Shown here: one piece after another, positions 3,140-61,929 of the stretch | Position numbering within the stretch: position 1 is the first letter of the stretch | How the letters are laid out: every line of letters begins with the position of its first letter | Assembly (NCBI GenBank): GCA_951406725.2 | Contig: OX597815.1 | Coordinates: 14,880,001 to 14,944,000, forward strand | DNA: 64,000 nucleotides | Direction of reading: 5' to 3' | From: Octopus vulgaris | Taxonomy: Eukaryota | Notes under the pieces: model-generated | What the model was told of the DNA's origin: nothing | Seen by the model: the letters and a program-made list of their open reading frames with translations, nothing else | Databases searched by the model: none | Position numbers and translations under genes: made by a program

Positions 3140-3480
3140 CTATATCGTTACATTTGAGGATGATCTCTTTTTGCCAAATGAACATACGCACTATATATTC
3201 GTTCTTGGCGTCAGATTTATTTCATTATTGTCCTTATTTTGTCCTTTGTTTGGAAATTTTTTCGTCACAACCTGAAAGACGGGATGAACTAAACAGGACA
3301 CGAGGAGACACATGGGATGGAGAGTCGCTGAGGAGGTCACAGGAAGTGTGACGACAGATTTCCAGACAATGGTCATAAAAAAATAAGAACAATAATAAAC
3401 AAGTGAAGAACGAATATATAGTGTATGTGTTTTATTGGCAAAAACAAAAAAAAATGACGATCCCGAAATATAGCAATATC
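3140..3480. mobile_element. Old fold-back PLE-type terminus with decayed hammerhead motif
   Basis: 3140-3275 is a diverged reverse complement of 3340-3480; CTGAGGA-G-GTCACA/TGTGAC-GACA at 3328-3356; same family as 33240-33420. Confidence 0.6.
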
Positions 3481-12032: not shown

Positions 12033-12398
12033 GTATTCCCGAACCTAATCCTATCCTTTTTACCATATTTTCCAGGTGGATATGTACTCTCTGCTGTATG
12101 TTAATTATTGGACTGTGCTGTTTCTTTGTAAGTATCTTCTCTCTGATCATTATAATCCAATTCACGCAACTATTAATGTGATCATCTCTTAAAAAAAAAA
12201 AAAAAGACATCGTGACTACTAAAGCGATAAAATAAATCCCAGTGCAGTAGCGGAGTCAACAGTGTCGGCTGTTCTCTCTTCGAAAGAAAACTAATTGAAC
12301 TGATCATCCGTTGTTAAATATCACTGATCACTCAAATGTCAAGCAAATCTTAATTATCCACACAAAAGCCTGAATAAATAAATGACAACTGTTATTAA

Positions 12399-12671
12399 CA
12401 ATTGCAGCGTGGAAGGTGTTTATAAACCATTTAAGAAACACACAAAAAACCCCGTTAGATTCACTTCAACATTTAAATTTAATGTCATTGAACGGGTCGC
12501 GGTCTCAAAGCGACGAAAATATTTTGACAAATTAAATTTAAATGTTGAAGTGAATCTAACGGTTTTTGTGTGTTTCTTAAATGGCTTATAAACACCTTCC
12601 ACGCTGCAATTGTTTTCGTTCCAGCACACGATCTAAGATCAAGTCACTCGCTATGCAAGTAGACCACCGTA
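12399..12671 (+). mobile_element. Fold-back PLE-type insertion with hammerhead-shaped centre
   Basis: Arms 12397-12487 and 12525-12614; tail 12615-12671; TSD AACTGTTATTAA at 12387-12398 and 12672-12683. Confidence 0.82.
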
Positions 12672-12936: not shown

Positions 12937-13720
12937 AAGGCGGCGATCTGGCAGAATTGTTAGCACGCTGAGCGATATGCTTAGCGGTATTTCGTCTGCC
13001 ATTACGTTCTGAGTTCAAATTCCGCCACGGTCGACTTTGCCTTTCATCCTTTCGGGGTCGATTAAATAAGTACCAGTTACGCAGAGGGGGCGATATAATC
13101 GACTTAATCCGTTAATTTGTCCTTGTTTGTCTTCTCTGTGTTTAGCCCCTTGTGGGTAGTAAAGAAATAGGTATTTCGTCTGTCGTTACGTTGTGAGTTC
13201 AAATTCCGCCGAGGTCGACTTTGCCTTTCATCCTTTCGGGTTCGATAAATTAAGTAGCAGTTACGCACTGGGGTGGTTGTAATCGACTTAATCCTTTTGT
13301 CTGTCCTTGTTTGTCCTCTCTGTGTTTATCCCCTTGTGGGTAATAAAAAAATAGGTATTTCGTCTGCTGCTACGTTCTGAGTTCAGATTCTTCCGAGGTC
13401 GACTTTGCCGTTCATCCTTTCGGGGTCGATTAAATAAGTACCAGTTACGCACTGGGGTCGATGTAATCGACTTAATCCGTTTGTCTCTCCTTGTTTGTCC
13501 CCTCTGTGTTTAGCCCCTTGTGGGTAGTAAAGAAATAGGTATTTCGTCTGTCTTTAACTACTAAATTCAAATTCCGAAGATGTCGACTTTGCCTTTCATC
13601 CTTTCGGGGTCGATAAATTAAGTACCAGTTACGCACTGGGGTTGATATAATCGACTTAATCCGTTTGTCTGTCCTTGTTTGTCCTCTCTGTGTTTAGCCC
13701 CTTGTGGGTAGTAAAGAAAT
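12937..13720 (+). mobile_element. SINE family C, one head plus four ~184-bp tandem body units
   Basis: Head AAGGCGGCGA.CTGGCAGAA; units start GGTATTTCGTCTG at about 12987, 13170, 13354, 13538; core GCCTTTCATCCTTTCGGGGTCGATAAA..AAGTACC resembles the Meta-SINE domain; TSD TAGGYGTATCRTTCTT. Confidence 0.88.
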
Positions 13721-14068
13721 AGGCGTATCATTCTTGTATATTTTCCAGTTGCCTTTCGCATCATCAATATCACAACTCATAATGCCACACTTTGGAATCG
13801 GCCTGGGCTTAGGTAAGTCATAGTAATTTCATACCATAATAATTTGTATTAACAAATACTAATTGTTTTACTGGCTTCCACTGGTGCATGTTTATTTCAC
13901 TTTGTCTTTCATTAGTGTGAAAATTCCAAATAAAAATGTATATATATATAAGTATAGGTACAAAAATTCAGGGTGAATACTTGATAATTGTAAGCACCTG
14001 TATATACCATTAGTGGTGTAGTTGATAGAGTATATTAATCAAAATAAAAACATGATTGAAAGGATTTA

Positions 14069-14158
14069 GCGGTACATATGTTTCGGGCCTTTATTAGACG
14101 GTTTTATAACAATGCATAATTGATGTAAATGTGTGTGTCTATGGCCTTCTTCAGCCGC
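14069..14158 (-). ncRNA. Putative type I hammerhead ribozyme
   Basis: GCGG-CUGAAGA-A-GGCC[long loop]GGCC-C-GAAA-CAUAUG-UA-CCGC; palindromic stem III ACAUAUGU; GUA cleavage triplet. Confidence 0.72.
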
Positions 14159-14498
14159 GTACAATTACTACTTCAAGGACATATATTACATTATAAGTTT
14201 TACGTTGGGGATGCAAATCCTCATAGTCGCGTACGACAGAGTGGGGTACCAACACGAAATCGAAGCGTCCATCCCGCTTTTGACTCGATGTAGAATGAGG
14301 AAGTTGAATCTTCAACCCCCCAAACCCCTTCCCTCTCTAGCTCAACATCCAAACTTCCTCATTCTACATCGAGTCAAAAGCTGGATGGACGCTTCGATTT
14401 CGTGTTGGTGCCCCACTCTGTCGTACGCGACTATGAGGATTTGCATCCCCAACATAAAACTTATAATGGAATATATGTCCTTGAAGTAGTAATTGTAC

Positions 14499-14586
14499 GC
14501 GGCTGAAGAAGGCCATAGACACACATTTACATCAATTATGCATTGTTATAAAACCATCTAATAAAGGCCCGAAACGTATGTACCGC
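14499..14586 (+). ncRNA. Putative type I hammerhead ribozyme (mirror copy)
   Basis: GCGG-CUGAAGA(14503)-A-GGCC...GGCC-C-GAAA(14571)-CGUAUG-UA-CCGC. Confidence 0.65.
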
Positions 14587-14679
14587 TAAATCCTTTCAAT
14601 CATGTTTTTATTTTGATTAATATATATATAAGTATATATATATGTATATATTTCGGAAATATAAAATTATATATAAAAA

Positions 14680-15231: not shown

Positions 15232-15372
15232 GTTTTGACTATTGAAAAAGGTTGCAAACGCAACGAAAATTTTAGGAAAATAAAAATAAAAAATAAGTGG
15301 AAATTTTACCGGTGAGTGTGTTACATTATAAGGCACAAAAAGAAAATGACTCTCCCCAGACACAACAGAATA
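15232..15372 (+). mobile_element. PLE-type terminus (same family as 23332-23705), not inverted
   Basis: CTATTGAAAAAGGTTGCAAACGCAACGAAAATTTTAGG...CCCCAGACACAACAGAATAT matches 23522-23657. Confidence 0.75.
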
Positions 15373-15396
15373 TATATATATTTATATATATATATA

Positions 15397-15465: not shown

Positions 15466-15523
<58 letters not shown>

Positions 15524-15524
15524 C

Positions 15525-15932
15525 TCTCTTTTACTCTTTTACTTGTTTCAGTCATTTGACTGCGGCCATGCTGGAGCACCGCCTTTAGTCGAGCAAATCG
15601 ACCCCGGGACTTATTCTTTGTAAGCCCAGTACTTATTCTATCAGTCTCTTTTGCCGAACCGCTAAGTTACGGGGACGTAAACACACCAGCATCGGTTGTC
15701 AAGCAGTGCTAGGGGGACAAACACAGACACACAAACATATACACATACACTTATATATATATACATATATACGACAGGCTTCTTTCAGTTTCCGTCTACC
15801 AAATCCACTCACAAGGCATTGGTCGACCCGGGGCTATAGCAGAAAACACTTGCCCAAGATGCCACGCAGTGGTACTGAACCCGGAACCATGTGGCTGGTT
15901 AGCAAGCTACTTACCACACAGCCACTCTTGTG

Positions 15933-15935
<3 letters not shown>
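15525..15935 (-). mobile_element. SINE family A
   Basis: Reverse-complement family match. Confidence 0.92.
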
Positions 15936-15965
<30 letters not shown>

Positions 15966-16416
15966 TTCTATCTATATAGATATGCATGTATGCACACATA
16001 TGCGCGTACATAAATGCACACATAAGTGCACAGATACACAAATACACGCACATAGGTACGTACATAAGGCATATAATCGTACATATATATACATACGCAT
16101 TATAACCTTCAATCCGATAGTTTATAAACGGCTCATGAGTCCGATACTGTAATCGTCAATTTTCATGTGACCTTTGATCTGGTTTCTGACGTAGATACTT
16201 TATCTTTGTATTTTGTTTGTTGCTTTGAGCTATGACATCATGTTTTGAAATAACTAGCTTGTAATACTTCTTTAATTAATATCAGTGATTTTGTAAAATG
16301 TTCAGTTTGAGCGAATTTTTCGTGTGATTACGGTTTGCATAATTACCAAGTATTGTTATGGAGATGCATCAGTATTTGTCTTGTTGAGAAATGGATTCAT
16401 TTCACAAATGAATATA

Positions 16417-16811
16417 CGCGCAGGAGTGGTTGTGTGGTAAGTAGCATGTTTACCAACCACATGGTTCCGGGTTCAGTCCCACTGCGTGGCACCTTGGTTA
16501 AGTGTCTTCTACTATAGCCTCGGGCCGACCAAAGCCTTGTGAGTGGATTTGGTAGACGGAAACTGAAAGAAGCCCGTCGTATATATGTATATATATATAT
16601 GTTTGTGTGTCTGTGTTTGTCCCTCTAGCATTGCTTGACAACCGATGCTGGTGTGTTTATGTCCCCGTTACTTAGCGGTTCGGCAAAAGAGACCGATAGA
16701 ATAAGTACCGGGCTTACAAAAAAATAAGTCCCGGGGTCGAGTTGCTCGATTAAAGTGCTCCAGCATGGCCGCAGTCAAATGACTGAAACAAGTAAAAGAG
16801 TAAAAGAGAGT
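16417..16811 (+). mobile_element. SINE family A
   Basis: Family match. Confidence 0.92.
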
Positions 16812-18572: not shown

Positions 18573-18606
<34 letters not shown>

Positions 18607-18648
18607 AAAAAATGAAGTTTGAAAATGCTGCAATATTAGACAAATTTT

Positions 18649-18700
18649 AATTTTTAACATGTTTCGGTTCTTGAAATGACGAACCTTATCAAAAGAAATT
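18649..18700 (-). ncRNA. Putative type I hammerhead, U3-A8 core variant
   Basis: UU-UUGAUAA-GGUUC[GUCAUUUCAA]GAACC-GAAA-CAUG-UU-AAAAA. Confidence 0.55.
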
Positions 18701-20225
18701 ATATATAATAAAGGGAGTTCATGCTATATGTTTAAAGAGTATGATGTAATAGTTTATAATTGTGACATATATTCAATAGAGTCAAATATAAAAAATTCAT
18801 ATATAATAAAGGGAGTCCATGCTATATGTTTAAAGAGTATGATGTAGTAGTTCATAATTGTGACATACATTCAATAGAGTCAAATATAAAAAATTCATGT
18901 TCTTGAAGAGGCAAGGAGTTCATTTTAGATTTTACCTTGTGTTCCAATGGGAGCAACAGTAATGATTTTTGGTCGGTGTCTGTTCGCATAATTTTGGTGA
19001 ATTTTGTGATTGTTGGGTTTATATCAGCTCAGCTAGGCTGTGGTCACTTGCACTTTTCACTGACGTCATATAGTTCCAAACCAATCAAAACCCAGTCTCA
19101 ACGAATATAGTGAAAAGACTCCTAAAGGAAACCAACCAAGCGGAGCGACAGTTTGGCCACGGAAGAAATACGTCATCATTTTTTTGACGAACCGAAATTA
19201 GATCTGACCCATGACTGTATTCTGTTAGGTGGCTAGTCCAGCAGAACGAGACGTCATCAATATTTTGACCAATCATCCTGTTAGGTGGCTAGTCCAGCAG
19301 AACGAGACGTCATCAATGTTTTGACCAATCAGAATCGGGTCTGACCCATAGCTGTATCGTGTGGGGAAACCGACCAAGCAGGGTGACAATAGCTTGACCA
19401 CTGAGGTAATACGTCATCAGTTTTTTGACGAATCAGGATTAGATCTGCTCGTTGAGAAAGAGATCTTTTTATAAATTTTTCCTTCCCGTCAGCGTGAGTG
19501 ACTGTTTAAGGATCTGAGAAATTGTAATTCGCCCCACCTCCATTATTATAGTTCTCTCACTGTGGCTGTAGCAGCTATGGGTTAGACCCGATTCTGATTG
19601 GTCAAAACATTGATGACGTCTCGTTCTGCTGGACTAGCCACCTAACAGGATGATTGGTCAAAACATTGATGACGTCTCGTTCTGCTGGACTAGCCACCTA
19701 ATAGAATACAGTCATGGGTCAGATCTAATTTCGGTTCGTCAAAAAAATGATGACGTATTTCTTCCGTGGCCAAACTGTCGCTCCGCTTGGTTGGTTTCCT
19801 TTAGAGTCTTTTCACTATATTCGTTGAGACTGGGTTTTGATTGGTTTGGAACTATATGACGTCAGTGAAAAGTGCAAGTGACCACAGCCTAGCTGAGCTG
19901 ATATAAACCCAACAATCACAAAATTCACCAAAATTATGCGAACAGACACCGACCAAAAATCATTACTGTTGCTCCCATTGGAACACAAGGTAAAATCTAA
20001 AATGAACTCCTTGCTTCTTCAAGAACATGAATTTTTTATATTTGACTCTATTGAATGTATGTCACAATTATGAACTACTACATCATACTCTTTAAACATA
20101 TAGCATGGACTCCCTTTATTATATATGAATTTTTTATATTTGACTCTATTGAATATATGTCACAATTATGAACTATTACATCATACTCTTTAAACATATA
20201 GCATGAACTCCCTTTATTATATATA

Positions 20226-20276
20226 ATTTTTTTTGATAAGGTTCGTCATTTCAAGAACCGAAACATGTTAAAAATT
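20226..20276 (+). ncRNA. Putative type I hammerhead, U3-A8 core variant
   Basis: UUUUU-UUGAUAA(20233-20239)-GGUUC/GAACC-GAAA(20260)-CAUG-UU-AAAAA; palindromic stem III ACAUGU. Confidence 0.6.
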
Positions 20277-20349
20277 AAAATTTGTCTAATATTGCAGCAT
20301 TTTCAAACTTCATTTTTTACAAATATATACCCACTCGTATACGAGCTAA

Positions 20350-21610
20350 TCTTATTATATATATATATATATATATAGCGAGGCTATGAGAGGTATTGGT
20401 ATCTAGAAGACTCAAAGACTGGCAAGTAGCGCTAAATAAGTGCTGCGTGTGTGTGTGTGTGTTTGTTTCCTCTATGCACAGCCAAACTGCTGGATCAATC
20501 TGTAACAAATTTGGCATGAAGGTTTATCATTACTCGGGGAAGATTCTAGTGAGGTCAAATGTTGGCCCTTGCTCATATAGGCTGTAGCCTTCCGACCCAC
20601 ACGACCCTTCCGATTTTTTATCAGCGGCACAGTAGTTTCACTTTTATTCCTTCACTTTGACTTCCGATTTGTTTTTCCAGCAGCTTAATATTGTTTCACT
20701 TTTATTCTTTCACATTTGATAAGACTATAATAATACTACATACATACAACTGCTTACAAAAATAGAGATTAATGTATATTTTTTTTCTATGTTCAAAATT
20801 GTTTGCTTATGCCACCAAAGAAAAGATGCAATCTCTCCAGAAACAATTATAAAGCAAGGAAGATTGTAGAAAATCATAGACGAGAGTCTCAAGAGAGATA
20901 GGAAATGAGACTTTCCCAAGATCAGCAAAGACATACTGTAGCATGTCAAATGGAGTCTCAAGAGAGAAGGCAGATGAGACTTTCTTAAGATCAGCAAATG
21001 CATGTTGCAGCACATCAAAAAAAGAGTTTCAAGACAGAAGTGAGATGACACTTTCTCAAGATCAGCAAAGACATTCTGCAACACGTCAGATGGAGTCTCA
21101 ATATAGAAGGGAGAGGAGACTTTCCCAAGATCAGCAAATGCATGTTGCAGTATGTTTTGGAGTCTTAAGACAAGCGAGATGACACCTTCTCAAGATCAGC
21201 AAACGCAAGCTGTAACACATCAGATGGAGTCTCAATACAGAAAGGAGATTAAACTCTCCCAAAATTTCCAAATGAAACTAATGGCATGCGCTGCTCAGAT
21301 GGTAAGGTAAGATTGCCAGCACTACCAACTCCTCCTCAACATTTTATAGATCTTCTGGAAGGCACTTCCATCCAGTCAAAGGATTTTCTGAACACTATCA
21401 GACAATACAACTCTGTATTTCGAACGACATCGTTTGGTGCATCTAAGGCGATAGGTGAACATGGATTTACGCCAACGTCTAAAGTTCAAGGTCAAGTCTA
21501 TCACCTCATTGGTTCCCTGTAACCCACAATAGAACAATTGAACTTCCTCCAAATTTGCTTCGCGAGTGATGTAAGACAACAAACCCAAAGGAGGTGTCAA
21601 AACGTCAGAC
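20350..21610 (+). mobile_element. Helitron 5' fragment (TC start, 23-aa repeats, RepHel N-terminal region)
   Basis: A|TCTTATTATATA start; CSDGKVRLP..PP...FLNTIRQYNSVF..TSFGA...KVQGQVYHLIGSL is characteristic of Helitron RepHel; disrupted. Confidence 0.88.
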
Positions 21611-21967: not shown

Positions 21968-22172
21968 ATCCAAACATGAAAACACAAAGAGAAAACACAA
22001 CAACGCGAGGACGTGGAACAAATATAGTATTATTGGACGCTCAAGAAGGAAGGGAACAAGGAGGGTTTAACGTTTCGAGCGGAGCTCTTCGTCGGAAACA
22101 TAGAAGAAAGATCCAGAGAAGGGAAGACAGAGGGAAAAAAATCGCCAACTGTACACACGCGGTCACAAATTA
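21963..22172 (-). mobile_element. PLE-type 3' terminus with hammerhead-shaped motif (22065-22099)
   Basis: Minus: GUUU-CCGACGA-A-GAGC[UCC]GCUC-GAAA-CG-UU-AAAC; ends in (TA)n. Confidence 0.62.
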
Positions 22173-23331
22173 GCACTTTCATACTTAGTATAATAATCAA
22201 ATTCAATGATTACACTATGTATGAAAGCGCTAATTTAACTTTATGGACATTAGAAAATATTTTTATGATGTTAAAATACCATAATGGAAAACGTGAAAAC
22301 CAGACCATGTTTTCACTTTATTCAACTGATGTATTATTCTATACACATTCACACAAATTAGAAACGAAATACACTCATTCACGCGCCCACACACACACAC
22401 ACCCACACCCACACACACACACACGTATGTATGTAATGGTATATTTTTATATATTTGTAGGTCCATCTATTTCCGGCCATGTAGTGAAATCATATGGATT
22501 TGTTACGTAAGTCAATGTTTATATAATTCTCATGTTACTGTAGTATTTGATTACTAATTCGTAAGCTGCAAGAGCAACACAAACTAGTCTGGATATTTGT
22601 GATGAAAATAATCTTCAATTTAAGGATATGCCTGAGAGAAACAGGCAGGACATTCTGTCGATATGGAGATCTAAGGGTGATGGGTTGGCATAATCGGTAG
22701 GGCACAGGGCAAAATGCTATGCACCATTTAGTTGTGACTATTTATGTCGAGGGTCTAAATCTTGTCGAGGCCAACTTTGCTTTTAATCCTTCCGGTGTTT
22801 TACATCACCCAATTTCTTTTTCTTTTGTGGATATAGTTCATTAGCTGAACCCCAGCTGATAAATAGAATGTTTCGGATGCTACTGAGGTTCATATAATAC
22901 CTGACCGCTGTGGTCTAATCTAATATCAGCAAAGGGGAAATTGTTATGGTCTTGTCCAGTTATGGACAAACTGCGACCCGCGGGACTTTCGGGTGGCACG
23001 CCAAACGAATACTAACCTTGAAATTTTTTAGTAATGCGTTCCGCTTCTCAAAAAAGTTTGCCTATTAATTAAAACTTCGGTTTTCATTCCTTATCTTTGT
23101 TTTATTAGTCATTATAGATAAGTATTATCCTCATTACTATATATTTAATTTTAATTGATTAACATTTCTTGGCTTACATCAAGAGTGCAAGCATCATTTA
23201 CTATTAACAGCAATTGGTAGGATTCAGTCAGGACCAGGTTCCATCAAAGAGGGAAATCTAGATCTACATCGGCATACTTTGATGCAGGGTTACCAGATTA
23301 TGTAGCTTTTCAAGACTACACACCAATTTTT

Positions 23332-23705
23332 TGTTGTGTCTGGGGAGAGTTATTTTCTTTTTGTGCCTTATAACGTAACACACTCACCGGTAAACTTTCC
23401 ACTTTTTACCTTATTTTTATTTTCTTAAAATTTTCGTTGCGTCTTGCAACCTTTTTCAATAGTTTTGACTCAAACTATTGAAAAAGGTTGCAAGATGCAA
23501 CGAAAATAGTTTTGACTCAAACTATTGAAAAAGGTTGCAAGATGCAACGAAAATTTTAGGAAAATAAAAATAAGAAAAAAGTGGAAATTTTACCGGTGAG
23601 TGTTTTACATTATAAGACACAAAAAGAAAATTACTCTCCCCAGACACAACAGAATATGCTTCAACACACGAACTCACATAAAGAATCTTGCAAACCAAAA
23701 ACGAA
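23332..23705 (+). mobile_element. Fold-back PLE-type insertion with hammerhead-like motifs
   Basis: Arms 23332-23465 and 23472-23651 (with a 47-bp duplication); tail 23652-23705; TSD ACACCARTTTTT at 23320-23331 and 23706-23717. Confidence 0.82.
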
Positions 23706-26285
23706 ACACCAGTTTTTGTTTTTCTATTTAATTTAAGTTACTCCCTCAACAAAAATCTCGTTGAAAATCAGAATAAAGTATCAACTAAGTAAATTAGAAC
23801 CGACCTACTTGCAAGCCTTAAGTGTATGTATGGCTCTGAGGAAGCTATAAGATGTCGCCACTGGTATTTAACACTGAGTGCACGCTTACTTAAAGAAGGA
23901 ACTGTTGTCAGCCAATGAAAATATCATGTGGCTCCTGTTCTTTTGTCGTTCGTTTATTGAACATATATATCTGTATGTGATTGTGTGTGTGTGTGTGTGT
24001 AGAGAGAGAGAGAGAATGAGAGAATGAAAGAGAGAGAAGGGGGCTTAGACGTCACTTGCACTTGCTAGTTGTTTTTGTTGCCTATGTAGTCTCGAGCAGA
24101 CATAGACACACTCACTCTTATCTCTCCTACCCTTAACCCAGCAAAACATCGATAATGCAACAGATGTAGGAAGAAAAAAGGAGAGAGAGAGAGGGGGGAG
24201 AGTTGCACCAGTCAGTAGTCGACTGGTACTTGTTTTCAGTTAAGTAGACTTGAGTAACATGAAATGGAGTGCTCAAGGAAACAATGGCCTGCCCGGTCAA
24301 AAAATCGAACCAACACCGTAACCTCATTCTCTCTCTCAATACACAAGCACACATACATACATATTTAAAAAAAAATTTTTTTTATTTTATCTAGTTTCAG
24401 CTCACGAGCTGTGGCCATGCTGGGGCACCGCCATTTGGTCACGTTCGTCTATTCTCCTGCTCAGTTTTTTAAGACTTCCCATTTCTCCCTTGCGTCAGCC
24501 TACTATGTTCGTCTAATAGTCGAGAGACCCTTTCTGTTATTGATTTGTGTTGTAAATGTATAATTACTTTCCTTTTGTTGTATAGCCGAACGGCGTTTTT
24601 CTGTTGTATATGTATAATTCTTTTTATGATACACTTGTATTATTATTTCATCACATTGTATTGTATAGTAATTTTTTTTTAGCTTTCTTGTTCTTGTATA
24701 CGTTCGTTTGCTTTTCCCAGAAGCTTAATGCTTTGGCGCTTGACCGAATCGAGCGGTTTCAGTGGTAAAAAGCGCGAAACTGCTAGGACTTTTCGGAAAT
24801 TTACTGACGAGGAAATCTGCTGCAAATATCCCGTGTATCTTGTTTTTGCTTAGTTTCCCGTTTGTTATGTTATCGTCAAGTTTTCCGTATATTTCCGCTT
24901 ACTGTGTTTTCTCCTTGTGTTCTTTCTGTTCAACCCTTGATTTGTGTGTGTATGTGTGAAGAAGGAAAATAGGGATTAAATAAATCCAAGCAAATCCAGT
25001 TCTAGCAAATTCATTCTCTCTTCTATGATTAAGTTGCAGTTAAGGACATCAGATTTAATTGCAACTCTAAACTGAGAAGATAAATACAACTGCTGGCTGT
25101 CATTAAACTTAGAACATCTGATAAAGGTATTTCCCCTTGTCTATAACACAAACACTGGACAATAAAAATGGAGACAGTGGTCTGGAATTTATTGCTTGTA
25201 AACCCCCTTCTTTATCTCAATGTATACAAAATTTAACACAAGCATTCTGCCTATGGAAAGAAAAGCATAGCAGCTATGTGCTCTGTATCTCTGGAAATTT
25301 AGTCGATCAAATGAAGGTTCGATTGAATATGCAATGAGCAGCGCTTGCGTTGTGCCAGGCTATTCGAAACGCGTGTAAGCTAAATAAATTGTTGATACCG
25401 TCTTTTCATTGTTTGTTTTACACACATACACTCTCTCTCTCTCTCTCTCACTCTCTCTGAAATTAATTAATTTGGCAACCCAGTTTCGCTTATATAAATC
25501 CCCTTTTTACCCTTAATCCCAGTTAAATTGATTAACACAAGCGAGATGTTACTCAGTGTAATCTTCTTGTCACTAATATGCATTACGGTGCGAGTTCAAA
25601 TCTCACTGAAGACAACTTTGTCTTTCATCTTTCCAAGGTCGATAAAATATAGTACAGATCATGTAATGGGATCGTTTTTCATCTACTTAATTTTCTTTAC
25701 AAAAATGCATGGCATTGAACCAGCGTTATTAATCTATAATATAAAATATTCAAACCGACATACCGCATTATGTAAATATAAAACAGCATATGGACGTGCG
25801 TGAAAATATAGATATTTATTGGACAGAGTGAGAGAAAACAGATGACATACCTAACCAACAACGGTCCTGTTAGAAATAGCAGCCAAATATTTTTCAAATG
25901 GACCATTTCGTCTTAAAATTAAGGAAGAATACATCGGATAAATTAAGTTACAGACATATCATGTATGAAATAAATGACGAAATGGTCATGTCTGGAATCT
26001 CCTTGATGTATGTCTATTTAATTTTGAGCAGACCTGGGACTAAAAGTGAACATACAAGATGTCACTCCTTTAAAAATAAAAATTTACATGTAAAAAAACA
26101 ACTCTGTAGAGTTTAATTTGAGAGTGATTTGGTTATTACGTGCAGTAAGTCGAGCGATCGCCTAATTTATTGTTCAATATATTTTTAAATGTTCCAGTTT
26201 CTTTTTTTTTTTTTTTTGTCTGTGTGTCATTGCTTTATTTATGCTCCATTAATTCGAGCTGTTTTGAAATCTTGTTTATTTACAA

Positions 26286-27470
26286 CTAGTAGAAGTACCC
26301 GGCATTGCTCGGGGTTCAAATACTACAATGTTTTTGATACTTACGTTAACGTCAAACTGTAACAAAATTGATCGCTTATTGTAACAAAGTTATAGCAAAT
26401 TGTAACAAAATTGGTCGCCGGGTACCGCTGAAGCCAAGAAGTAACAGTTTGATACGAAGTCTTGAGAAGAACCTTAATGCGTTCTAAGATGGTGTAACAA
26501 TCACGGGTAAAGTAGCCCTGCAAAAGGCTTTTTTGTCATTCTCACAGCAGTAGCAATTTGATAAAAAGCCTTGAAAAGGACTGGGATCTTTTCGGTTTGA
26601 ACGGCAGTTTTTTCTAGCGGTGTCATATGAAATTGTCACCCATAATTATGACCCTAGTATCGATCTATTGCATTTCAATCTGTTTTAGGGTTAGGGTTAG
26701 GGTGGGGGAAAGGTATCTTTTTTTTTCTTCAGAAATGTAAATAAACCCAATCTGTTTCTTAAACGAGGGACATATTCATACGGCACAGAATGTTTTCACC
26801 TCAATAGACGTCATTGATTGGTTGAAATTGCAGAAATTGAAGAAGAAAAAACAACAAATATTTTACAAACTATAGAATTTTCTCAATAAAGCCAAGAGAA
26901 AAAGATGTTTTATAAACACATTCTACCAGTATACGAAGTTTAAATTTTTTTAGTTACCTAGAAATTATTTTAAAAACTGCCGTTCAAACCGAAAAGACCC
27001 AAGAACTGTGATGTGTTCTCGGGTGGTGTAACAATTGTATATGAAAATTGACCCTGAAAAGGGTCTTTTTTTTCGCTTACACCGAAAGCAACGGAACTGC
27101 TTAAATGTAAACTCTGTAAAAATAGATGACAAACCTAGGTTGGACAAAGGAAAAGAGAAACATGGTTGAAGAAAGTTAGAAACTTTGAAAGCATGACTAC
27201 AATAGTACTCGCCACATATCAGGTCTGCAAGGCTGCACTGGTGTAGTGGAGACCTAGAGGCTCACGAATTTGAAAAGAGGTGTTGGAAGGCTGGAATTCC
27301 TTCCAACACCTCTCTGTAGACCACATTTTTCGTTTTGCCATTAGGAGTAAGTACGAATAGATTTTTGTTTGCTTCCAACTCTGGAGAATCCGACATATAA
27401 CTGGCCATGAAAGAAACGTGGCTTGCCCTCCTTCTTTTGGCAGCAGAAAGCAGGCTCTGTTTTACAACCA
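26286..27470 (-). mobile_element. Helitron 3' fragment (Pif1 helicase C-terminus, hairpin, CTAG end)
   Basis: FHGQLYVGFSRVGS (frameshift) KNLFVLTPNGKTKNVVYREVL; terminus CCCGAGCAATGCCGGG-TACTTCTA-CTAG|T. Confidence 0.88.
26584..27000. mobile_element. MITE, Merlin-like, with internal (TTAGGG)3
   Basis: TIR GGATCTTTTCGGTTTGAACGGCAGTTTT; 8-bp TSD AAGGACTG/AAGAACTG; nested in the Helitron. Confidence 0.8.
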
Positions 27471-27596
27471 AGGCGCCTTCTTTTCTTAGTTGGCATGGCG
27501 GTAGTATTGGACTATGTTTGAAATGCGAGTTTTAAAAAACGGGCAAAAAGGGACACAGAAAAGCAAATTTGGCACGATGTAAAAAAGTGAATCTAC

Positions 27597-28011
27597 GGAT
27601 CTTTTCGGTTTGAACGGCAGTTTTTTCTAGCGGTGTCATATGAAATTGTCACCCATAATTATGACCCTAGAATCGATCTATTGCATTTCAATCAGTTTTA
27701 GGGTTAGGGTTAGGGGTGGGGGGAAGGGTATCTTTTTTTCTTCACAAATGTAAATAAACCCAATCTGTTTCTTAAACGAGGGACATATTCATACGGCACA
27801 GAATGTTTTTGACCTCAATAGATGTCATTGATTGGTTGAAATTGCAGAAATTGAAGAAAACAAATAAACATCTTACAAACTATAGAATTTTTTCAATAAA
27901 GCCAAGAGAAAAAGATGTTTTATAAACACATTCTACCAGTATACGAAGTTCAAAAGTGTTTAGTTACGTGGAAATTATTTTAAAAAACTGCCGTTCAAAC
28001 CGAAAAGATCC
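27597..28011. mobile_element. Second copy of the Merlin-like MITE
   Basis: Same TIRs and body; no clear TSD. Confidence 0.8.
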
Positions 28012-28541
28012 AAGACCTTCCATATAAAACATATCAACCTAACCTTCTTCAGCAGTATCAAATCATGTCACAACGTATATCAAATAAACAGTCCTATGTT
28101 TCACTCTGAGTTACGAACAACGAGATCCATAATAAACTTTAGATGAAATAGAGCGTACTTAGGACACCTATAGAAAAGAGGTATCACGGGGTTTTTGCTG
28201 TGACGGATGTACCAAGATTCAAGTAGAACAGTAGAACAAGGGCAGCACACTGCTTAAAATTTGTATTTTTTTTTTCCCTGTTACCTAGCTATAATTACAT
28301 AATTCACTTACAATATTTACAACAGTGATCCTCAGACTTACGTAGCGCCGTATGGTGCACTGAAAAAAAAAGCAAGACAATAAAACAAACTGATTTTGTG
28401 CAGTGTATTTGCTTGGTGCAATGCTTCTTGCATGAAATCTTGTTGTAAATTACATAAACAAGCCGAGATCTTATATAATGGTTTACAATTTTGGGCACAA
28501 GGTCTTGTGAAGTGAAATTATATTTGAATATGAATATCATA

Positions 28542-29756: not shown

Positions 29757-30525
29757 AAGGCGGCGAGCAGGCAGAAAAGTTAGCACGCTGGGTGAAATGC
29801 GTAGCCGTATATCGTCTGCCGTTACGTTCTGAGTTCAAATTCCGCCGAGGTCGACTTTGCCATTCATTCTTTCGGGGTCGATAAATTAAGTACCAGTTAC
29901 GCACTGGGGTCGATGTAATCGACTTAATACCTATGTCTGTCCTTGTTTGTCCCCTCTATGTAGGGCCCCTTGTGGGTAATAAAGAAATAGGTATTTCGTC
30001 TGCCGCTACGTTCTGAGTTCAAATTCACCCGAGGTCAACTTTGCCTTTCATCCTTTCGGGGTCGATTAAATAAGTACCAGTTACGCACTGGAGTCGATAT
30101 AATCGACTTAATCCCTTTGTCTGTCATTGTTTATCCCTTCTGTGTTTAGCCCTTTGTGGGTAGTAAAGAAATAGGTATTTCGTCTGCCGCTACGTTCTGA
30201 GTTCAAATTCCGCAGAGGTCAACTTTGCCTTTCATCCTTTCGGGGTCGATAAATTAAATACCAGTTACGCACTGGGGTCGATGTAATCGACTTAATACAT
30301 TTGTCTGTCATTGTTTATCCCTTCTGTGTTTAGCCCCTTGTGGGTAGTAAAGAAATAGGTATTTCGTCTGTCTTTAACTTCTAAATTCAAATTCCGCCGA
30401 GGTCGACTTTGCCTTTCATCCTTTCGGAGACTATAAATAAAATATCAGTTGCGGGCTGGGGTCGATCTAATCGACAGGCTCCCTCCCCAAACATTTTGTA
30501 CCTTGTGCCTAGAGAAGAAAAGAAT
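29757..30525 (+). mobile_element. SINE family C, head plus four tandem units
   Basis: Same organisation as 12937-13720. Confidence 0.88.
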
Positions 30526-37064: not shown

Positions 37065-37594
37065 ATTCTTTTGTACTCTAGGCACAAGGCCTGAAATTTC
37101 AGGGGTGGGAGCCAGTCAATTAGATCAACCCCAGTACAGAACTGGTACTTAATTTATCAACCCCGAAAGGATGAGAAGCAAAGTTGACCTCGGTGGAATC
37201 TGAACTCAGAACGTAAAGACAGACAAAATACCTATTTCTTTACTACCTACAAGGGGCTTAACACAGAGAGGACAAACAAATGGATTAAGTCGATTACATC
37301 GACCCCAGTGCTTAACTGGTACTTAATTTATCAACCCCGAAAGGATGAAAGGCAAAGTCGACCTCGGCGGAATTTGAACTCCGAACGTAAAGGCAGACGA
37401 AATACCGCACTGGGGTCGATATAATTGACTTAATCCATTTGTCTGTTCTTGCTTGTCCCCTCTGTGTTTAGCCCCTTGTGGGTAGTAAAGAAATAGGTAT
37501 TTCGTCTGCAGTTACGTTTTCAGTTCAAATTCCACCGAGGTCAACTTTGCCTTTCATCCTTTCAGGGTCGATTAAATAAGTACCAGTTACGCAC
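37065..37594. mobile_element. SINE family C units in inverted arrangement
   Basis: Minus units 37065-37407 abut plus units 37407-37594. Confidence 0.82.
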
Positions 37595-46117: not shown

Positions 46118-46952
46118 TATATATATACATTTTAAATATATATACATGAAATAGTTCAAAGTAACCTTAAAACTATCCAGACACTGATTTAACCAGGTAT
46201 AAGTTAAGCTTTAATCAAGAGATGTATAGTACAGCTGTTCTTGGTCACTTTGGATCACATCATTTCATCATTCCGCATTCAGTACAACACAACCCCAAAT
46301 ATCTAAATCACTGATTGAAGCATTTTGTTTCAGTTAAAACAACTGGTATTGCCATTCCATAAGCATTGCAATTTTTGTCTTACAATTATTCAGTCAACAA
46401 TAAAGCTTGAAGAGTTAATATAGAAATAGAAGACGTTACTGGTTAGCTGTAATCAGAAATTGCTATGTTGTTTATCTGTGTCTAGAATTTTTACTATTGT
46501 GCAAATCATTTGAATTCTTTCATTTTCTCTGTCATTAATTACCAAAGAAAGTGTTATATGATGAAAGCTGATACAGATAGTACAGAGTAGTTTCTGGCAG
46601 CTAAAGGCATGTAATCAGTCTTATACGGTTTCATCAGCAAATTAACTTGCCTGCAAAGAAATTTTCTTCTAAGAATCAAGCTTTATGAAATTCTTAATTT
46701 CTAAAAATTATTTCCTCTTTTCTTTGGCCTTCATAAACAGTTACTATAAGATTTGTTTTCTTTATTTCATTTAAAGGGGCAATCTCAATTGACAGTGAAT
46801 ATTCTGTGTTTGTCTTTCACTATGTCATACAGACTTTCATTCCTCATCCCTACCAAAATAAAGGGCTTCTTTTAACTCTTGGATTTTTATAAAGAGATTA
46901 AGGTACATTATTTACATTTGATAGATATTTGTCCTCATCTTGTTTGTTGTTA

Positions 46953-46996
46953 ACACAATGTTTCAGCTGATATACCCTCCAGCCTTCATCAGGTGT
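46953..46996 (-). ncRNA. Putative type I hammerhead
   Basis: ACAC-CUGAUGA-A-GGCUG[GAGGGUAUAU]CAGCU-GAAA-CA-UU-GUGU. Confidence 0.65.
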
Positions 46997-47223
46997 CTTG
47001 GGGAAATTTCAGACCTGGGTTCTCATTCCTAAAGTATTTTTCAGTGTTATTATAATTCAGGTCACTGCCTGGAATCGAACTCGGAATCTTGGGGTTAAGA
47101 GCGTGGGCTACTAACCAAGATTCTGAGTTTGATTCCAGGCAGTGACCTGAATAATAATAACAATAATAATAATGTTGAAAAATACCTTAGGAATGAGAAC
47201 CCAGGTCCAAAATTTCTCCAAGA

Positions 47224-47267
47224 CACCTGATGAAGGCTGGAGGGTATATCAGCCAAAACGTTGTGTT
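47224..47267 (+). ncRNA. Putative type I hammerhead (G12 mutated to A)
   Basis: ACAC-CUGAUGA-A-GGCUG/CAGCC-AAAA-CG-UU-GUGU; the two arms together imply ancestral CAGCC-GAAA-CG-UU. Confidence 0.6.
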
Positions 47268-49818
47268 AACAACAAACAAGATGAAGACAAATATCTGTCA
47301 AATGTAAATAATGTAAATAATTCCTCATCTCTTAAATATAGAACAGAGATTAAGGTGTTTGATGTAGATGTAAGTGGTAGGGTACAGTGATGTGGGCCTG
47401 GGCAGAAGTAAAGGGATTGGAAGAGGGCGAACTAAGTAGAACATATGTCAGAGGTGGTTATGTGTGAACAGTGGACAAAATTTCATGAGTAGTGAACAGT
47501 AAAGCTAAGTAAACTTGCTGTATATGATAAAGAGACAAAAAAAAAACCGAGACAGATTTGCTGAATGTGAAACACTAGACACAACACAGTTGGAATAGTA
47601 AGGTATTTTGTTAGCATATGGCTTCTATGTTATTTTCAAGCTTAGTAGATCTTCTCTAAGCATATCACCGATTAGCTACATTCAGTGAAATCAAGTGTCA
47701 CAATTCCATTATTAGTCCTGGCAGGAATTCAGTAAAGGTATGAGCTACTCAACAATCTAATTAAAACTACCATCATTTCCTGCTCATTAGCAATCAATAT
47801 TATTTGATCCACTACTTTATGACATCATGGGTCTTGGTACACAAATCCAGTTTATGTCAAGTGACCCCATTCCAGTGGTTATCTGTCTTCATTTTCGCTC
47901 CAGCTACCATTAAACACAACTTCTTCACTAACATTAGGAAGACTCTGTAATGCCTTTTGATGTGCAAGAAATGGCAGGTAAATCTCTTTTAAAATACACC
48001 TTACTGTCTCAGAAAAATAAGTGATACCAGATACACCATATCTGAAAAACAAAGACATGATGGTCCCAGAATGTCCTTTAATCAAAGATTTGATCAGAGT
48101 TGATCTGGAGAATAAACAGCTTCATAAACCCAAATCACAGGTCCTTACCAAATATAACAAATCAATGCACTTTTCCTCCCCACTCCCTCACAACTTCTTT
48201 AACACACTAGACCAATTTTGTACATGAATTCAGCTGTAATGAAAATGACTATTCAATTGGTATCTACCGCTGAGCTGTATGAAATCTCATATTAAGTGAT
48301 CAAATTAACAAGTAAGAGAATCCTATTAAATTAAGCCAGATCACAATTCTACAACCTTGACAGGTGGAAAATAATCCAGTTGAATTAGCCAAGGTGGCTC
48401 TTTATGTACTTTTAACCAGGAAGAACAAACACCAACCAGAAGACAGAAACACTATTTTAGAACAAAACTAACAAGATTGACTACACAATTTAAACAGTAG
48501 GATTACCATGGGAGAAGAAATGAAGTAGGAAATAAGCAAGGACAAGTCAACAGTTTATATTTATTGTGCCTTAGCTATGCACAAGTTTTGTAAAATGGAA
48601 GAATGTTGTGATTTGAGAGAGATTTGACCTATTTCTAGCATGTCAAGCTATCATGTAAAGCAGGCATGAGTAACCATTTTCAACTTCAAACAAGCTGCAT
48701 AAAAAAAAAAAAAAAGATTCCAGGTAATTTTCTGATTGGCATGCCATTCAGGAAGTCTCACAAGCTGCAGTTTACCCATGACTAATGTAGAGGCTCTTTC
48801 AATGGCTTGAGACTTAAGACGCCAGACTCAAAAAGTTTGTGAGTTCAAATTCTCTAACTCTGAACAAGACATAATTCGGCACACATTAGTTTACAGTATC
48901 TGAATGAAGAAAATAACTTGAATGGTCCAGCATCCTCTCCAAAAGAAAAGTTTGTCTCTAAAACAATGGTACAAAAAAATCTGGAAAGAAATATATACAC
49001 AAACAGTAGCTTTATTCATGTAGTTCGCAGAATTCTGATATTTATATAATATATACTACACTCTCAGAGTGGTTGGTGTTAGGAAGGGCATTCAGCTGTA
49101 GAAACTCTGCCAAATCAAGATTGGAGCCTGGTGCAACCATCTGGTTCGCCAGCCCTCAGTCAAAATCATCCAACCCATGCTAGCATGGAAAGCGGACGTT
49201 AAACGATGATGATGATGATGATATATATATATATATATATATATATGTAATCAAGGAAGACTTAGCCACTGTATTAATGGATTAAGGTGCTTACGTTGGC
49301 TCTCACATTTCCTTGACATTTCTGACGTAGGTTATCATAACATTTCTAGCATACACAAGCTTTCACATCATGACCTCTGATTTTAAGAATTAATCAACAA
49401 GTGAAATAATGATGATTGAGTAAGCTGCTTATAAAGAAGGTATAAGAGATTGTTTAAGAAACTACTTTTCCCTATTCCTCACTCACTATCTGCTCCATAT
49501 TCTCCGAGGAAGTGTTATGCACAGTGAGATCTGAACAAAAGCTAAGAAACATACTAGCTTTAAGGAAAACTCTAAACATTTCACTTCTGTTTACAAATTA
49601 TAATTATAAAAATCACTCAACTACTCAATAACCTTGGTGATATATATACTAACTATTCTAATTAACTGTTATTTGTAAACAATATTGTTTCATTTACAAG
49701 TAAACATTTTATTTACAACAGTTTCGCTCATTTATTAATAAGTGGTACAAAAAATTCTACACATATTAAGAACCCTTGACATATGAAATATTCATTGATA
49801 AATAACTGACCCTATTAA

Positions 49819-57186: not shown

Positions 57187-59074
57187 AAAATTTTTGACAA
57201 TCTATTTTTAAATCTCAAAATAATTGTAGAAACCGAGAACGGAAAAGTTACGCACAATTTTGCGCGACATGAGAAAAAAATAGCAGCTATGGTTTTGTGT
57301 GGTTGGGAATGCTGTGTGTGAAATTACTTCAAAAAAGTCACAGACAGTTATATTATGTATTCTCTTTTATTGTTTAACCTAAAATAACCCGATGAAGGAT
57401 GTTGAACTCTTCAAAGTAACGCACAGTTTCGCGCAAAAGCGCGGCGTACAAAATAAAACGAAAAAGAAAAAAGTCACAGCCAGTCACGTACCGATTAGGA
57501 AATCCGCCTTTTTTTTTTTTTTTTAAACCTCTCTCTCTCTCTTCCTGCTATTGTTTGACCCAAAATTACCTGCTGAAGCAAGCTGATGACAGAGGCTTTA
57601 TTTAGCCATTCAACAAGTTTAAAACAGCTACCAAAGTCAGGGGCCTTAATAAATAAGGATATACTACTGAACAGTAATAAACTCTGACATGCAAAGAAAC
57701 GGAATGTCCACAGCTAGAATGCTTTTGATCCTTGCTCTGCTAGATATGAACTAACTTGGGGGTTAAGCAGAAAAAAAAACAAAAAACATTCGTCTGATAC
57801 TTTTCATTTCATCCCGAGATGAATAAAGCTTTCAGTAATTTTCTAAGCTAGGCTTTCATTTCACGAAGTTCCATATTCATGGATGTATAATCTCAAACTA
57901 CTTTTGAACTAAGAAACTTTATTTTTAAATCAAAAATAAATAAAAGCTACCACGGCCCTAATAGTTGGTGGTGGTTATTTAGATACGTGTCATGTCTCAC
58001 CGAGCAGAAACTATTATCGAACGACATGCCAACCGGGACTATCACATATTATATTCAGACACTGTATTCAATATCCTACTACATTATTCAAGTGTGCTTT
58101 CACTTCATAAAAATGTCGAAAGGACTTTGGCTGACATTTCTAGAAGTCGAGCAGCTGACATTGAAAGGAGACCGGAAAGCCGTAAACAACGAAAAAAAAT
58201 AATAAATAGAATGAAGTTAATCAGATGTTTTTAATCTTTTTTATGGGTTAGTGAAATGGGGGAAAGGGCAACATTTTACAGGACCTTAAGTACTGCTAAA
58301 GAGTGACGGTATCTCAGACTCCAGTTTATTATTAACCACTAACCACTTCGATCCCTGTGAAATAACCTAGGTGGAGGTCGATAGTTGGAGGTGGGCCTGC
58401 TAGGCAACCTCCTGGTGCTTTTCTTACGAGATCAGACTCCACAGCATCTGGTGGAAAGCTTTTGATGGAGAACAAATTGTAAATGTGTAATCACACCGGG
58501 TCTAATGATTAATACGGAATGAACTTTGCCAATAACATACCAAGGCCAAATGGATTATTTCTATATTGTCAAACGCACAGGTGGATTATGTATGTTTGTT
58601 AAGCCATACAAAAATAAAAAAATAAAATAGCAAACAGTTGCTTTGTGGAGAAAACATAAATAAAAGACAACAAAACGATCTGACTGTGGGGGTTATTATT
58701 CACTGCTTTCAAATGGGTTTCTTTATTTATGTGTCGTCACAATCATCTCTGGAAGTCGGTTAAAAAAGTCACAGCACTATGACAAATTATTGTAATACTC
58801 GTAAATAACGAATAACTTTTGGATACTGGCACATGACTACGAATTTGGTGACGGGGGGGGGGTCATAGATAGTTTATTGATCTCAATAATAATTCTTGTT
58901 TCGAATTTAGAACAAGACCAGCAAAAAGGCTGGCGGTTAGTGGTCGATTAATTCGACCTCAGTGCATGAGTGGTACTTTATTTTATCGATTTCGAAAAGC
59001 TGGAAGGCAAAACTGATCTCAACGGGATTTGAACTTAGAACGTCAATAGTCAAAATAAATACCGTGGGGGCAGT

Positions 59075-59480
59075 TTCTTATTTCTTTATTGCCCACAAGG
59101 GGCTAAACATAGAGGGGACAAACAAGGACAGACATAGGTATTAAGTCGATTACATCGACCCCAGTGCGTAACTGGTACTTAATTTATCGACCCCGAAATG
59201 ATGAAAGGCAAAGTCGACCTCGGCGGAAGTTGAACTCAGAACGTAGCGGCAGACGAAATACCTATTTCTTTACTACCCACAAGGGGCTAAACATAGAGGG
59301 GACAAACAAGGACAGACAAAGGGATTAAGTCGATTACATCGACCCCAGTTCGTAACTGGTACTTAATTAATCGACCCCGAAAAGATGAAAGGCAAAGTCG
59401 ACCTCGGCAGAATTTGAACTCAGAACGTAACGGCAGACGAAATACCGCTGAGCATTTCGCCCGGCGTGCTAACGTTTCTA
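59075..59480 (-). mobile_element. SINE family C, head plus two units
   Basis: Reverse-complement family match. Confidence 0.88.
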
Positions 59481-61254: not shown

Positions 61255-61510
61255 CAAATATACGACTTTGGTATTTTATTGTTAATTTAATTTTAATATT
61301 CCTATTATATGTAATTTCCTAGGTTGTGTAATTTACTTGTTTATTTTGAATTGATAAAAGGTGGTTTCTTTCTAATTTTTATATATATATATATAGTACC
61401 CAATGGCGGTGCCCCAGCATGGCCACAGCTCGTGAGCTGAAACTAGATAAGATAAGATAAATAAGAAGAAGTGATTTCAATGATTTATATTATGACTTTT
61501 ATAATAATTT

Positions 61511-61929
61511 TTATTTATCGACCCCGATGAAGGATGAAAGGCAAAGTCGACCTCGGCGGAATTTGAACTCTGCCGTAACGTTCTGAGTTCGAATTCCGCC
61601 GAGGTCGACTTTGCCTTTCATCCTCTCGGGGTCGATAAATAAAGTACCAGTGAAACACTGGGGTCGATATAATCGAATTAATCCCTTTGTCTGTCCTTGT
61701 TTGTCCCCTCTATGTTTAGCCCCTTGTGGGTAGTAAAGAAATAGGTATTTCGTCTGCCGCTACGTTCTGAGTTCAAATTCCGCCGAGGTCGACTTTGCCC
61801 TTCATCCTTTCGGGGGTCGATAAATTAAGTACCAGTTTCGCACTGGGGTCGATATAATCGACTTAATCCCTTTGTCTGTCCTTGTTTGTCCCCCTCTGTG
61901 TTTAGCCCCTTGTGGGTAGTAAAGAAATA
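61511..61929 (+). mobile_element. SINE family C dimer with 5' inverted segment
   Basis: 61511-61570 is the reverse complement of 61585-61642; TSD TATAATAATTT at 61500-61510 and 61930-61940. Confidence 0.85.

Follow-up and report, generated by a model that had tools for sequence, protein, structure and literature searches.

Hammerhead motifs of two Penelope-like element families

The window, that is, the whole 64,000-nt stretch of Octopus vulgaris DNA that was analysed (contig OX597815.1, positions 14,880,001–14,944,000), contains hammerhead motifs of two main families, A and B, the coordinates of which are collected in Table 1. The family letters A–I are labels of this analysis, and residue numbers follow the hammerhead standard, which the cited papers also use. 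The motifs of both families are minimal type I hammerheads located in the pLTRs of Penelope-like elements (PLEs). In family A, the core U3-U4-G5-A6-U7-A8-A9 reads UUGAUAA and is followed by stem II (GGUUC/GAACC) and GAAA, while stem III is the palindrome ACAUGU, the predicted cut lies after U17, and stem I consists of A/U only. UUGAUAA occurs in both arms of the 1.7-kb element, as had been reported in the earlier note, and one pair of stem I is broken by a C in the left, minus-strand copy. The arms (18596–19354 and 19572–20329) are 99.1% identical over 759 bp. The element proved to be a single head-to-head insertion of two 5′-truncated PLE ends, and consequently its two arms are not independent. 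Both fragments match, at about 92%, the 3′ UTR of locus L061, which sits behind an RT/GIY-YIG ORF. To the right of the element, approximately five diverged tandem units of 70 bp occupy positions 20883–21274.

Table 1. Positions of the PLE ends and hammerhead motifs of families A and B in the window
Feature	Position	Strand	Details
Family B single 3′ end with hammerhead, then (TA)n	15238..15373	+	core 15242–15248
(TA)n target microsatellite, left flank of family A element	18573..18602		
Left fragment, inverted 5′-truncated PLE 3′ end	18596..19573	−	978 nt, without tail; 91.5% identity to L061 7201–8172
Family A hammerhead, inverted twin	18649..18699	−	core 18692–18686; motif runs from 18692 to 18649
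Right fragment, 5′-truncated PLE 3′ end	19572..20356	+	785 nt, with tail; 91.7% identity to L061 3′ UTR
Family A minimal type I hammerhead	20226..20276	+	stem I 5′ side 20226–20232; core 20233–20239; stem II 20240–20259; GAAA 20260–20263; predicted cut after 20269
PLE tail	20330..20356	+	about 27 nt, one end only; in full-length relatives runs on into the ORF1 leader
(TA)n target microsatellite, right flank of family A element	20357..20378		
Family B head-to-head pair of 5′-truncated PLE ends	23326..23706		inverted 23326–23657; plus-strand tail to about 23706
Family B hammerhead, inverted copy	23424..23464	−	core 23459–23453
Family B hammerhead	23520..23560	+	core 23525–23531; stem II 23534–23548; GAAA 23549–23552; predicted cut after 23556

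All four UUGAAAA copies of the second family (the 23.5/15.2-kb family of the earlier note) could be located, at 23525 (+), 23478 (+), 23459 (−), and 15242 (+). In family B, stem II is GUUGC/GCAAC followed by GAAA, stem III is the palindrome AAUU, and stem I has only 3 bp. The copy at 23478 is a duplicate that has lost stem III. The spacer between A9 and stem II has two bases (AG) in four of four B copies of the window and one (G) in most genomic copies. The G10.1-C11.1 pair closing stem II is present in the window copies of both families.

The family A motif has the arrangement of the minimal PLE hammerheads, a N3-UGA-N7-N8-A9 core, GAAA and UH placed round three stems. It lacks the features of a canonical type I hammerhead (a match to the Rfam model and a stable stem I with loop–loop contact), as its stem I is short, and the 71 matches obtained at E ≤ 1 in an Rfam scan of the window included no hammerhead. 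A strict hammerhead descriptor matched the window once, at 20226–20276, and gave two matches, neither of them U3-A8, in 100 dinucleotide-shuffled windows. For the family A monomer, a non-hammerhead fold is preferred by prediction (−7.4 kcal/mol versus −4.7 kcal/mol for the hammerhead fold). The palindromic stem III duplex AACAUGUU has −6.4 kcal/mol and is intermolecular in the cofold, where two family A copies are predicted to join through an 8-bp intermolecular stem III. The whole window element is predicted to fold as a long hairpin burying the motif. In contigs from four runs with four organism labels, the core at 20233–20239 showed no alternative letter, which is neutral with regard to cutting.

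U3-A8 is the family state in A and B

Family members were counted in the genome (2.8 Gb) with patterns blind to the 5′ core, since best-hit DNA searches are biased to the query; being exact over their fixed part, these patterns limit the counts to well-kept copies. The states of the 3–8 pair were tallied by eye among the matches listed (the first 100 per family). Family A gave 123 matches, and U3-A8 was found in 94 of the 100 listed, in 80 cases exactly as UUGAUAA; the others listed were two C3-A8 copies, which are both ends of one tandem, and four truncated or irregular ones, with no G8 among them. In the wider A lineage 15 copies lacked A8; none of these was C3-G8, and CUGANGA was absent. 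For family B (3,099 matches), U3-A8 was present in 84 of the 100 matches listed, the remaining ones being four C3-A8, two A3-A8, four with C8 or U8, and six irregular copies. Genome-wide, 29 B copies carried G8, and three of them were C3-G8, where independent change would give about 1.2 (P = 0.11). A C3-G8 subfamily within B was considered and rejected, as these three copies share no common diagnostic letters and look private. A spreading clade of G5-dead A copies was rejected likewise: five of the nine G5U copies could be placed, and they fell into different subfamilies. We concluded that U3-A8 is the family state in A and B and not a private mutation. The consensus is accordingly fixed for this pair, a point that the earlier note had proposed to check, and the opposite outcome that it had named, a CUGAUGA consensus with private changes in the window copies, was not encountered.

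Sister families carry other states of the 3–8 pair

Family C, the sister of family B, is G3-C8: among its 4,978 matches, C8 was seen in 95 of the 100 listed, and G3 in 20 of 20 loci. No C3-G8 branch was detected in this family, as C3 did not occur in 100 listed copies of the 261 non-C8 ones. Among these listed non-C8 copies G8 was about as common as U8, although G8 is a transversion. Examples of family C are L195–L214 and L239, and a decayed copy lies at 12488–12530 inside an inverted repeat (12397–12614). Family E (332 matches) is C3-G8 in 89 of the 100 matches listed, with one private U3-A8 copy; canonical C3-G8 hammerheads of this family are found in the window at 3328 and 33259 (+) and in L275–L304 as well. 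The 3′ ends of families B, C, and E are homologous (the B–E alignment score is 70 versus 24 ± 4, reached in 0 of 500 shuffles), and their ORFs are related (37–49% identity). In a tree of short C-terminal fragments the B/C/E group had a support of 99, but the supports of 47–86 inside the group do not order its members.

Family D, the sister of family A, combines U3-A8 with C13: among the listed 100 of its 1,852 matches, 96 had U3-A8, 98 had C13 and none had A13. This family (L180, L182, and L260–L274) has GCAA for GAAA, is very homogeneous, and its ORF is 63% identical to that of A. Within the A lineage UUGAUAA is kept while stem II shifts in a compensated manner (GGUUC/GAACC, GGUUU/AAACC, and GCAU/AUGC), and the A-lineage subfamilies and sister families with UUGAUAA have ORF identities down to 63–65%. 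The 3′ UTRs of family A and its sister L183 can be aligned over the hammerhead end only.

Among the families met incidentally, C3-G8 was found in six of six copies of G, 14 of 15 of H and 15 of 17 of I. Taken as family states, none of the nine (A, L183, D, B, C, E, G, H, and I) has a mismatched 3–8 pair. An inverted pair of family G (46904–47315) carries canonical C3-G8 hammerheads with cores at 46992 (−) and 47227 (+). A family H hammerhead at about 22050–22105 (−) is C3-G8 with C4, the latter being present in 9 of the 15 incidental copies. The family I hammerhead (L061 5017, L192 2967 and 15 other incidental copies) is C3-G8 and has U6 in 16 of 17 copies. Family F is represented by a single U3-A8 copy (L236 8225, +) with different stems and no ORF link.

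The PLEs behind the two families

In family A, a GIY-YIG frame was found upstream of the hammerhead end in L003, L020, and L022, and the ORF ahead of the end in L061 matched RVT_1 (E = 7e-8) and GIY-YIG (E = 3e-5). L130 is a tandem, in which two family A hammerheads 4.4 kb apart enclose the ORF. Family A has the RT-then-GIY-YIG order of C-terminal EN+ PLEs, together with their pLTR, inverted 5′-truncated copy, one-end tail, and microsatellite target. In full-length copies (L305, L308, L310, and L312), the 781-aa RT-EN frame is preceded by a separate ORF1 of about 466 aa. The first AUG of ORF1 lies about 130 nt past the predicted cut and the RT-EN frame then follows in another frame; of 16 full-length candidates, 5 had a hammerhead motif ahead of ORF1. 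Recent activity of family A is suggested by the open 781-aa frames, of which there are at least 16. The intact-ORF subfamily has G-U at 10.1–11.1. In 16 of 30 copies (L069–L098), stem I is longer and has a 12-bp distal helix, which is deleted in the subfamily of the window. Behind several other A-related ORFs (eight labelled none), no hammerhead was found. Two ideas on the start of translation were given up: the AUG in stem III is followed by a stop within 2–4 codons in full-length copies, and a tail encoding the N-terminus was withdrawn for family A, as ORF1 begins after the tail.

Family B consists mostly of short ends, and its long copies follow remnants of a different PLE ORF. This link is based on four loci from three places (L109/L143, L136, and L142/L144), where the upstream ORF is preserved as broken RT-thumb and endonuclease remnants (L143, L136, and L144); a Pfam search of the family B reference ORF, L062, gave no match. 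The A and B proteins share 20% identity over 205 aligned residues. The linker before GIY-YIG contains a CX4CxxC motif in family A and a related, partly decayed one in B and C. Thus, the "two unrelated families" of the earlier note are indeed distant lineages, but both are PLE ends. The ORF links of one family C copy (L218) and of two family I copies are doubtful and probably incidental.

The assignment of family B to short non-autonomous elements or retrozymes was rejected because of the long copies found. Non-LTR retrozymes are short tandem repeats that have a single hammerhead in each unit and no ORF, and the copies observed here are dispersed, inverted, and ORF-linked. A retrozyme-like arrangement was noticed in L129 (1500–2000), where three family B hammerhead ends form a 111-bp tandem. 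Piling of 5′ ends at the cut site was not seen: anchors without the motif numbered 1 of 74 in A, 14 of 104 in B and 5 of 53 in C, in a sample that was itself picked by the presence of the hammerhead motif.

Probable selection on the 3–8 pair

Dispersed copies decay without compensation, therefore the evidence for selection must come from between families. That the related families B, C, and E have U3-A8, G3-C8, and C3-G8 is better evidence for selection than a C>T/G>A pair taken by itself. The core is also retained while stems and 3′ UTRs diverge, and selection on the 3–8 pair is likely when judged from these comparisons of sequence. The caveat that C>T and G>A are the commonest neutral changes fits U3-A8, but G3-C8 requires two transversions and falls outside it. 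Only about three independent lineage-level swaps could be counted, and under a crude model the chance that all of them are paired is 0.016–0.036, so their statistical weight is modest. The data support the view that selection acted on the source elements and not on the truncated copies in the window, which narrows the earlier suggestion drawn from the paired change. As A and B are both PLE ends but distant lineages, and as the sister group of B includes C3-G8, U3-A8 appears to have arisen twice, and the two states are probably convergent.

Resemblance to a hammerhead by chance in AT-rich repeats can be regarded as refuted. A and U make up stem I and a large part of the core, and the Rfam models recognised no hammerhead, but the shuffled windows never yielded U3-A8, the stems are compensated across families, and the position, the extra base after A9 and the palindromic stem III fit the published PLE consensus (PMC4209133). 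It is also quite improbable, and the comparison of families has already weakened the idea, that AT-biased C>T and G>A changes arose on a few master elements in which the hammerhead was no longer important and were then merely amplified. The region has 33–44% GC, one private U3-A8 copy did occur among the 100 listed copies of the C3-G8 family E, and copy number reflects amplification rather than independent events. Against this, no mismatched family state exists among the nine families (F was seen once), G3-C8 runs counter to the AT bias, and the core is still retained where the flanking UTR has diverged.

A more serious contender, albeit still unlikely, is that the motif persists for its role as a folded RNA signal, for example for protein binding or as the region where reverse transcription starts, with a 3–8 pair of structural function and little or no cleavage. 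The fixation of C13, U6, and C4 in successful families and the G-U at 10.1–11.1 in the intact-ORF A subfamily would be accommodated by such a role, and conservation spans the segment from the hammerhead to the tail, not the core alone. Furthermore, insertion of a lizard PLE in vitro did not require cleavage, with no RNA ends at the cut site in the experiments described (PMC11167929). On the other hand, the catalytically active fold contains the 3–8 pair (PMC9901934; PMC3884650), and all family representatives seen retain G5, G12, A9, A14, A15.1-U16.1, and a residue 17 other than G. For the minimal hammerheads of PLEs, cleavage has also been reported, either of dimers or in the presence of protein (PMC4209133; PMC11167929).

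Considering these data, we find it probable that the window holds ends of two PLE lineages with minimal hammerheads, in which U3-A8 likely replaced C3-G8 independently and was likely kept by selection on the source elements for a slow self-cleavage assisted by dimer formation or by protein. Where a source element is a tandem of pLTR-ORF1-ORF2-pLTR structure, the two hammerheads of one transcript would pair via the palindromic stem III, and U3 would pair with A8 as C3 does with G8. In known hammerheads the 3–8 pairing places residue 8 as the acid and G12 as the base (PMC6155905); here, G12 and the 2′-OH of residue 8 would promote the cut after U17, about 130 nt before the ORF1 start codon, by which the element RNA would be trimmed from a read-through transcript. 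The copies in the window are most likely truncated side products left by reverse transcription at (TA)n; the head-to-head arms would form a 759-bp hairpin, and these copies are probably inert.

Several facts speak against simple catalysis. Normally invariant positions are changed (C13 in D, U6 in I, and C4 in 9 of 15 copies of H), and stem I is weak, with A/U alone in A and just 3 bp in B. When all double mutants of a type III hammerhead were scanned, activity was rescued by the G3-C8 swap only, the remaining doubles, U3-A8 among them, being low (PMC9901934), and hammerhead mutants of the lizard PLE had no effect on insertion in vitro (PMC11167929). A tentative reading, which we hold to be possible at most, is that the core rules are looser for the PLE hammerheads here than for free ribozymes, the former being folded by the element protein, and that the loss of G8 freed A13. 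On this reading, the 3–8 pair flips among C-G, U-A, and G-C, while D fixed C13 after the U3-A8 swap and others fixed U6 or C4. If these RNAs still cleave with their own protein, nature would have provided in them a deep-mutational series of a ribozyme that works with protein assistance. Family D (U3-A8, C13) offers a test case for the core rules that hold under such assistance.

Relation to known hammerheads and PLEs

U3-A8 has already been published for PLE hammerheads, hence the present finding adds members and not a new kind. Cervera and De la Pena (2014; PMC4209133) reported approximately 1,300 U3-A8 matches in the minimal hammerheads of Schistosoma PLEs, with an extra base after A9, a palindromic stem III, and low activity as dimers. 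The hammerheads of the S. mansoni PLE Cercyon described there share with ours the type I topology, the short stem I, the palindromic stem III, the location in the pLTR, the inverted pairs, the U3-A8 covariation and the mostly truncated copies; the extra base after A9 is shared with family B. In contrast to Cercyon, the host and the PLE lineages are others here, U3-A8 occurs in two distant lineages, family A has no extra base after A9, and the sister families seem to add G3-C8 and U3-A8 with C13. The same compensated pair is known from the natural U3-A8 hammerheads of Perreault et al. (2011; PMC3088659), which were active in vitro according to earlier work cited there. Those motifs, recorded in a general survey, are standalone, whereas the ones here are minimal, of the dimer type and located in retroelements. 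In the literature searched, neither G3-C8 nor C13 was reported as a natural variant of PLEs, only laboratory swaps being found, and earlier hammerhead studies may hold such variants.

Poseidon PAc of Anolis (Frangieh et al., 2024; PMC11167929) also has a hammerhead in the pLTR, a one-end tail, and AT-rich targets, and its ribozyme needs protein and the 3–8 pair. It differs in having C3-G8 and an ORF that starts inside the ribozyme, while family A has a zinc-finger motif in the linker and an upstream ORF1 that begins about 130 nt past the predicted cut. By motif and layout, the elements resemble the Neptune/Nematis EN+ PLEs (Craig et al., 2021; PMC8557442), which likewise have RT followed by GIY-YIG, a CX2-5CxxC linker, two Cys in GIY-YIG, an inverted 5′-truncated copy, a tail, and (TA)n targets. 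Over the stretch of protein that was compared, families A and B diverge by 80%.

The role of the ribozyme in PLEs is still debated (PMC8557442; PMC11167929), and the C3-G8, U3-A8, and G3-C8 sister families lend natural support to selection on the tertiary 3–8 pair, hence on the active fold, in these elements. The earlier note had predicted that CUGANGA-based searches would miss such ribozymes. Such descriptors do miss some of the most abundant hammerhead families of this genome (B, C, and D with 3,099, 4,978, and 1,852 exact-pattern matches, respectively), but a descriptor for the U3-A8 variant already exists.

Other repeats in the window

Besides the PLE ends, the window contains an interspersed repeat of about 400 bp with a SINE-like layout (1301–1710, 15520–15940, 16410–16810, and about ten more copies). 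Two more inverted or direct repeat elements, in which no hammerhead was recognised, lie at 14031–14624 and 26584–28018. A 184-bp tandem and inverted repeat family is present at 12986–13723, 29807–30475, 37114–37594, 58943–59446, and 61510–61929.
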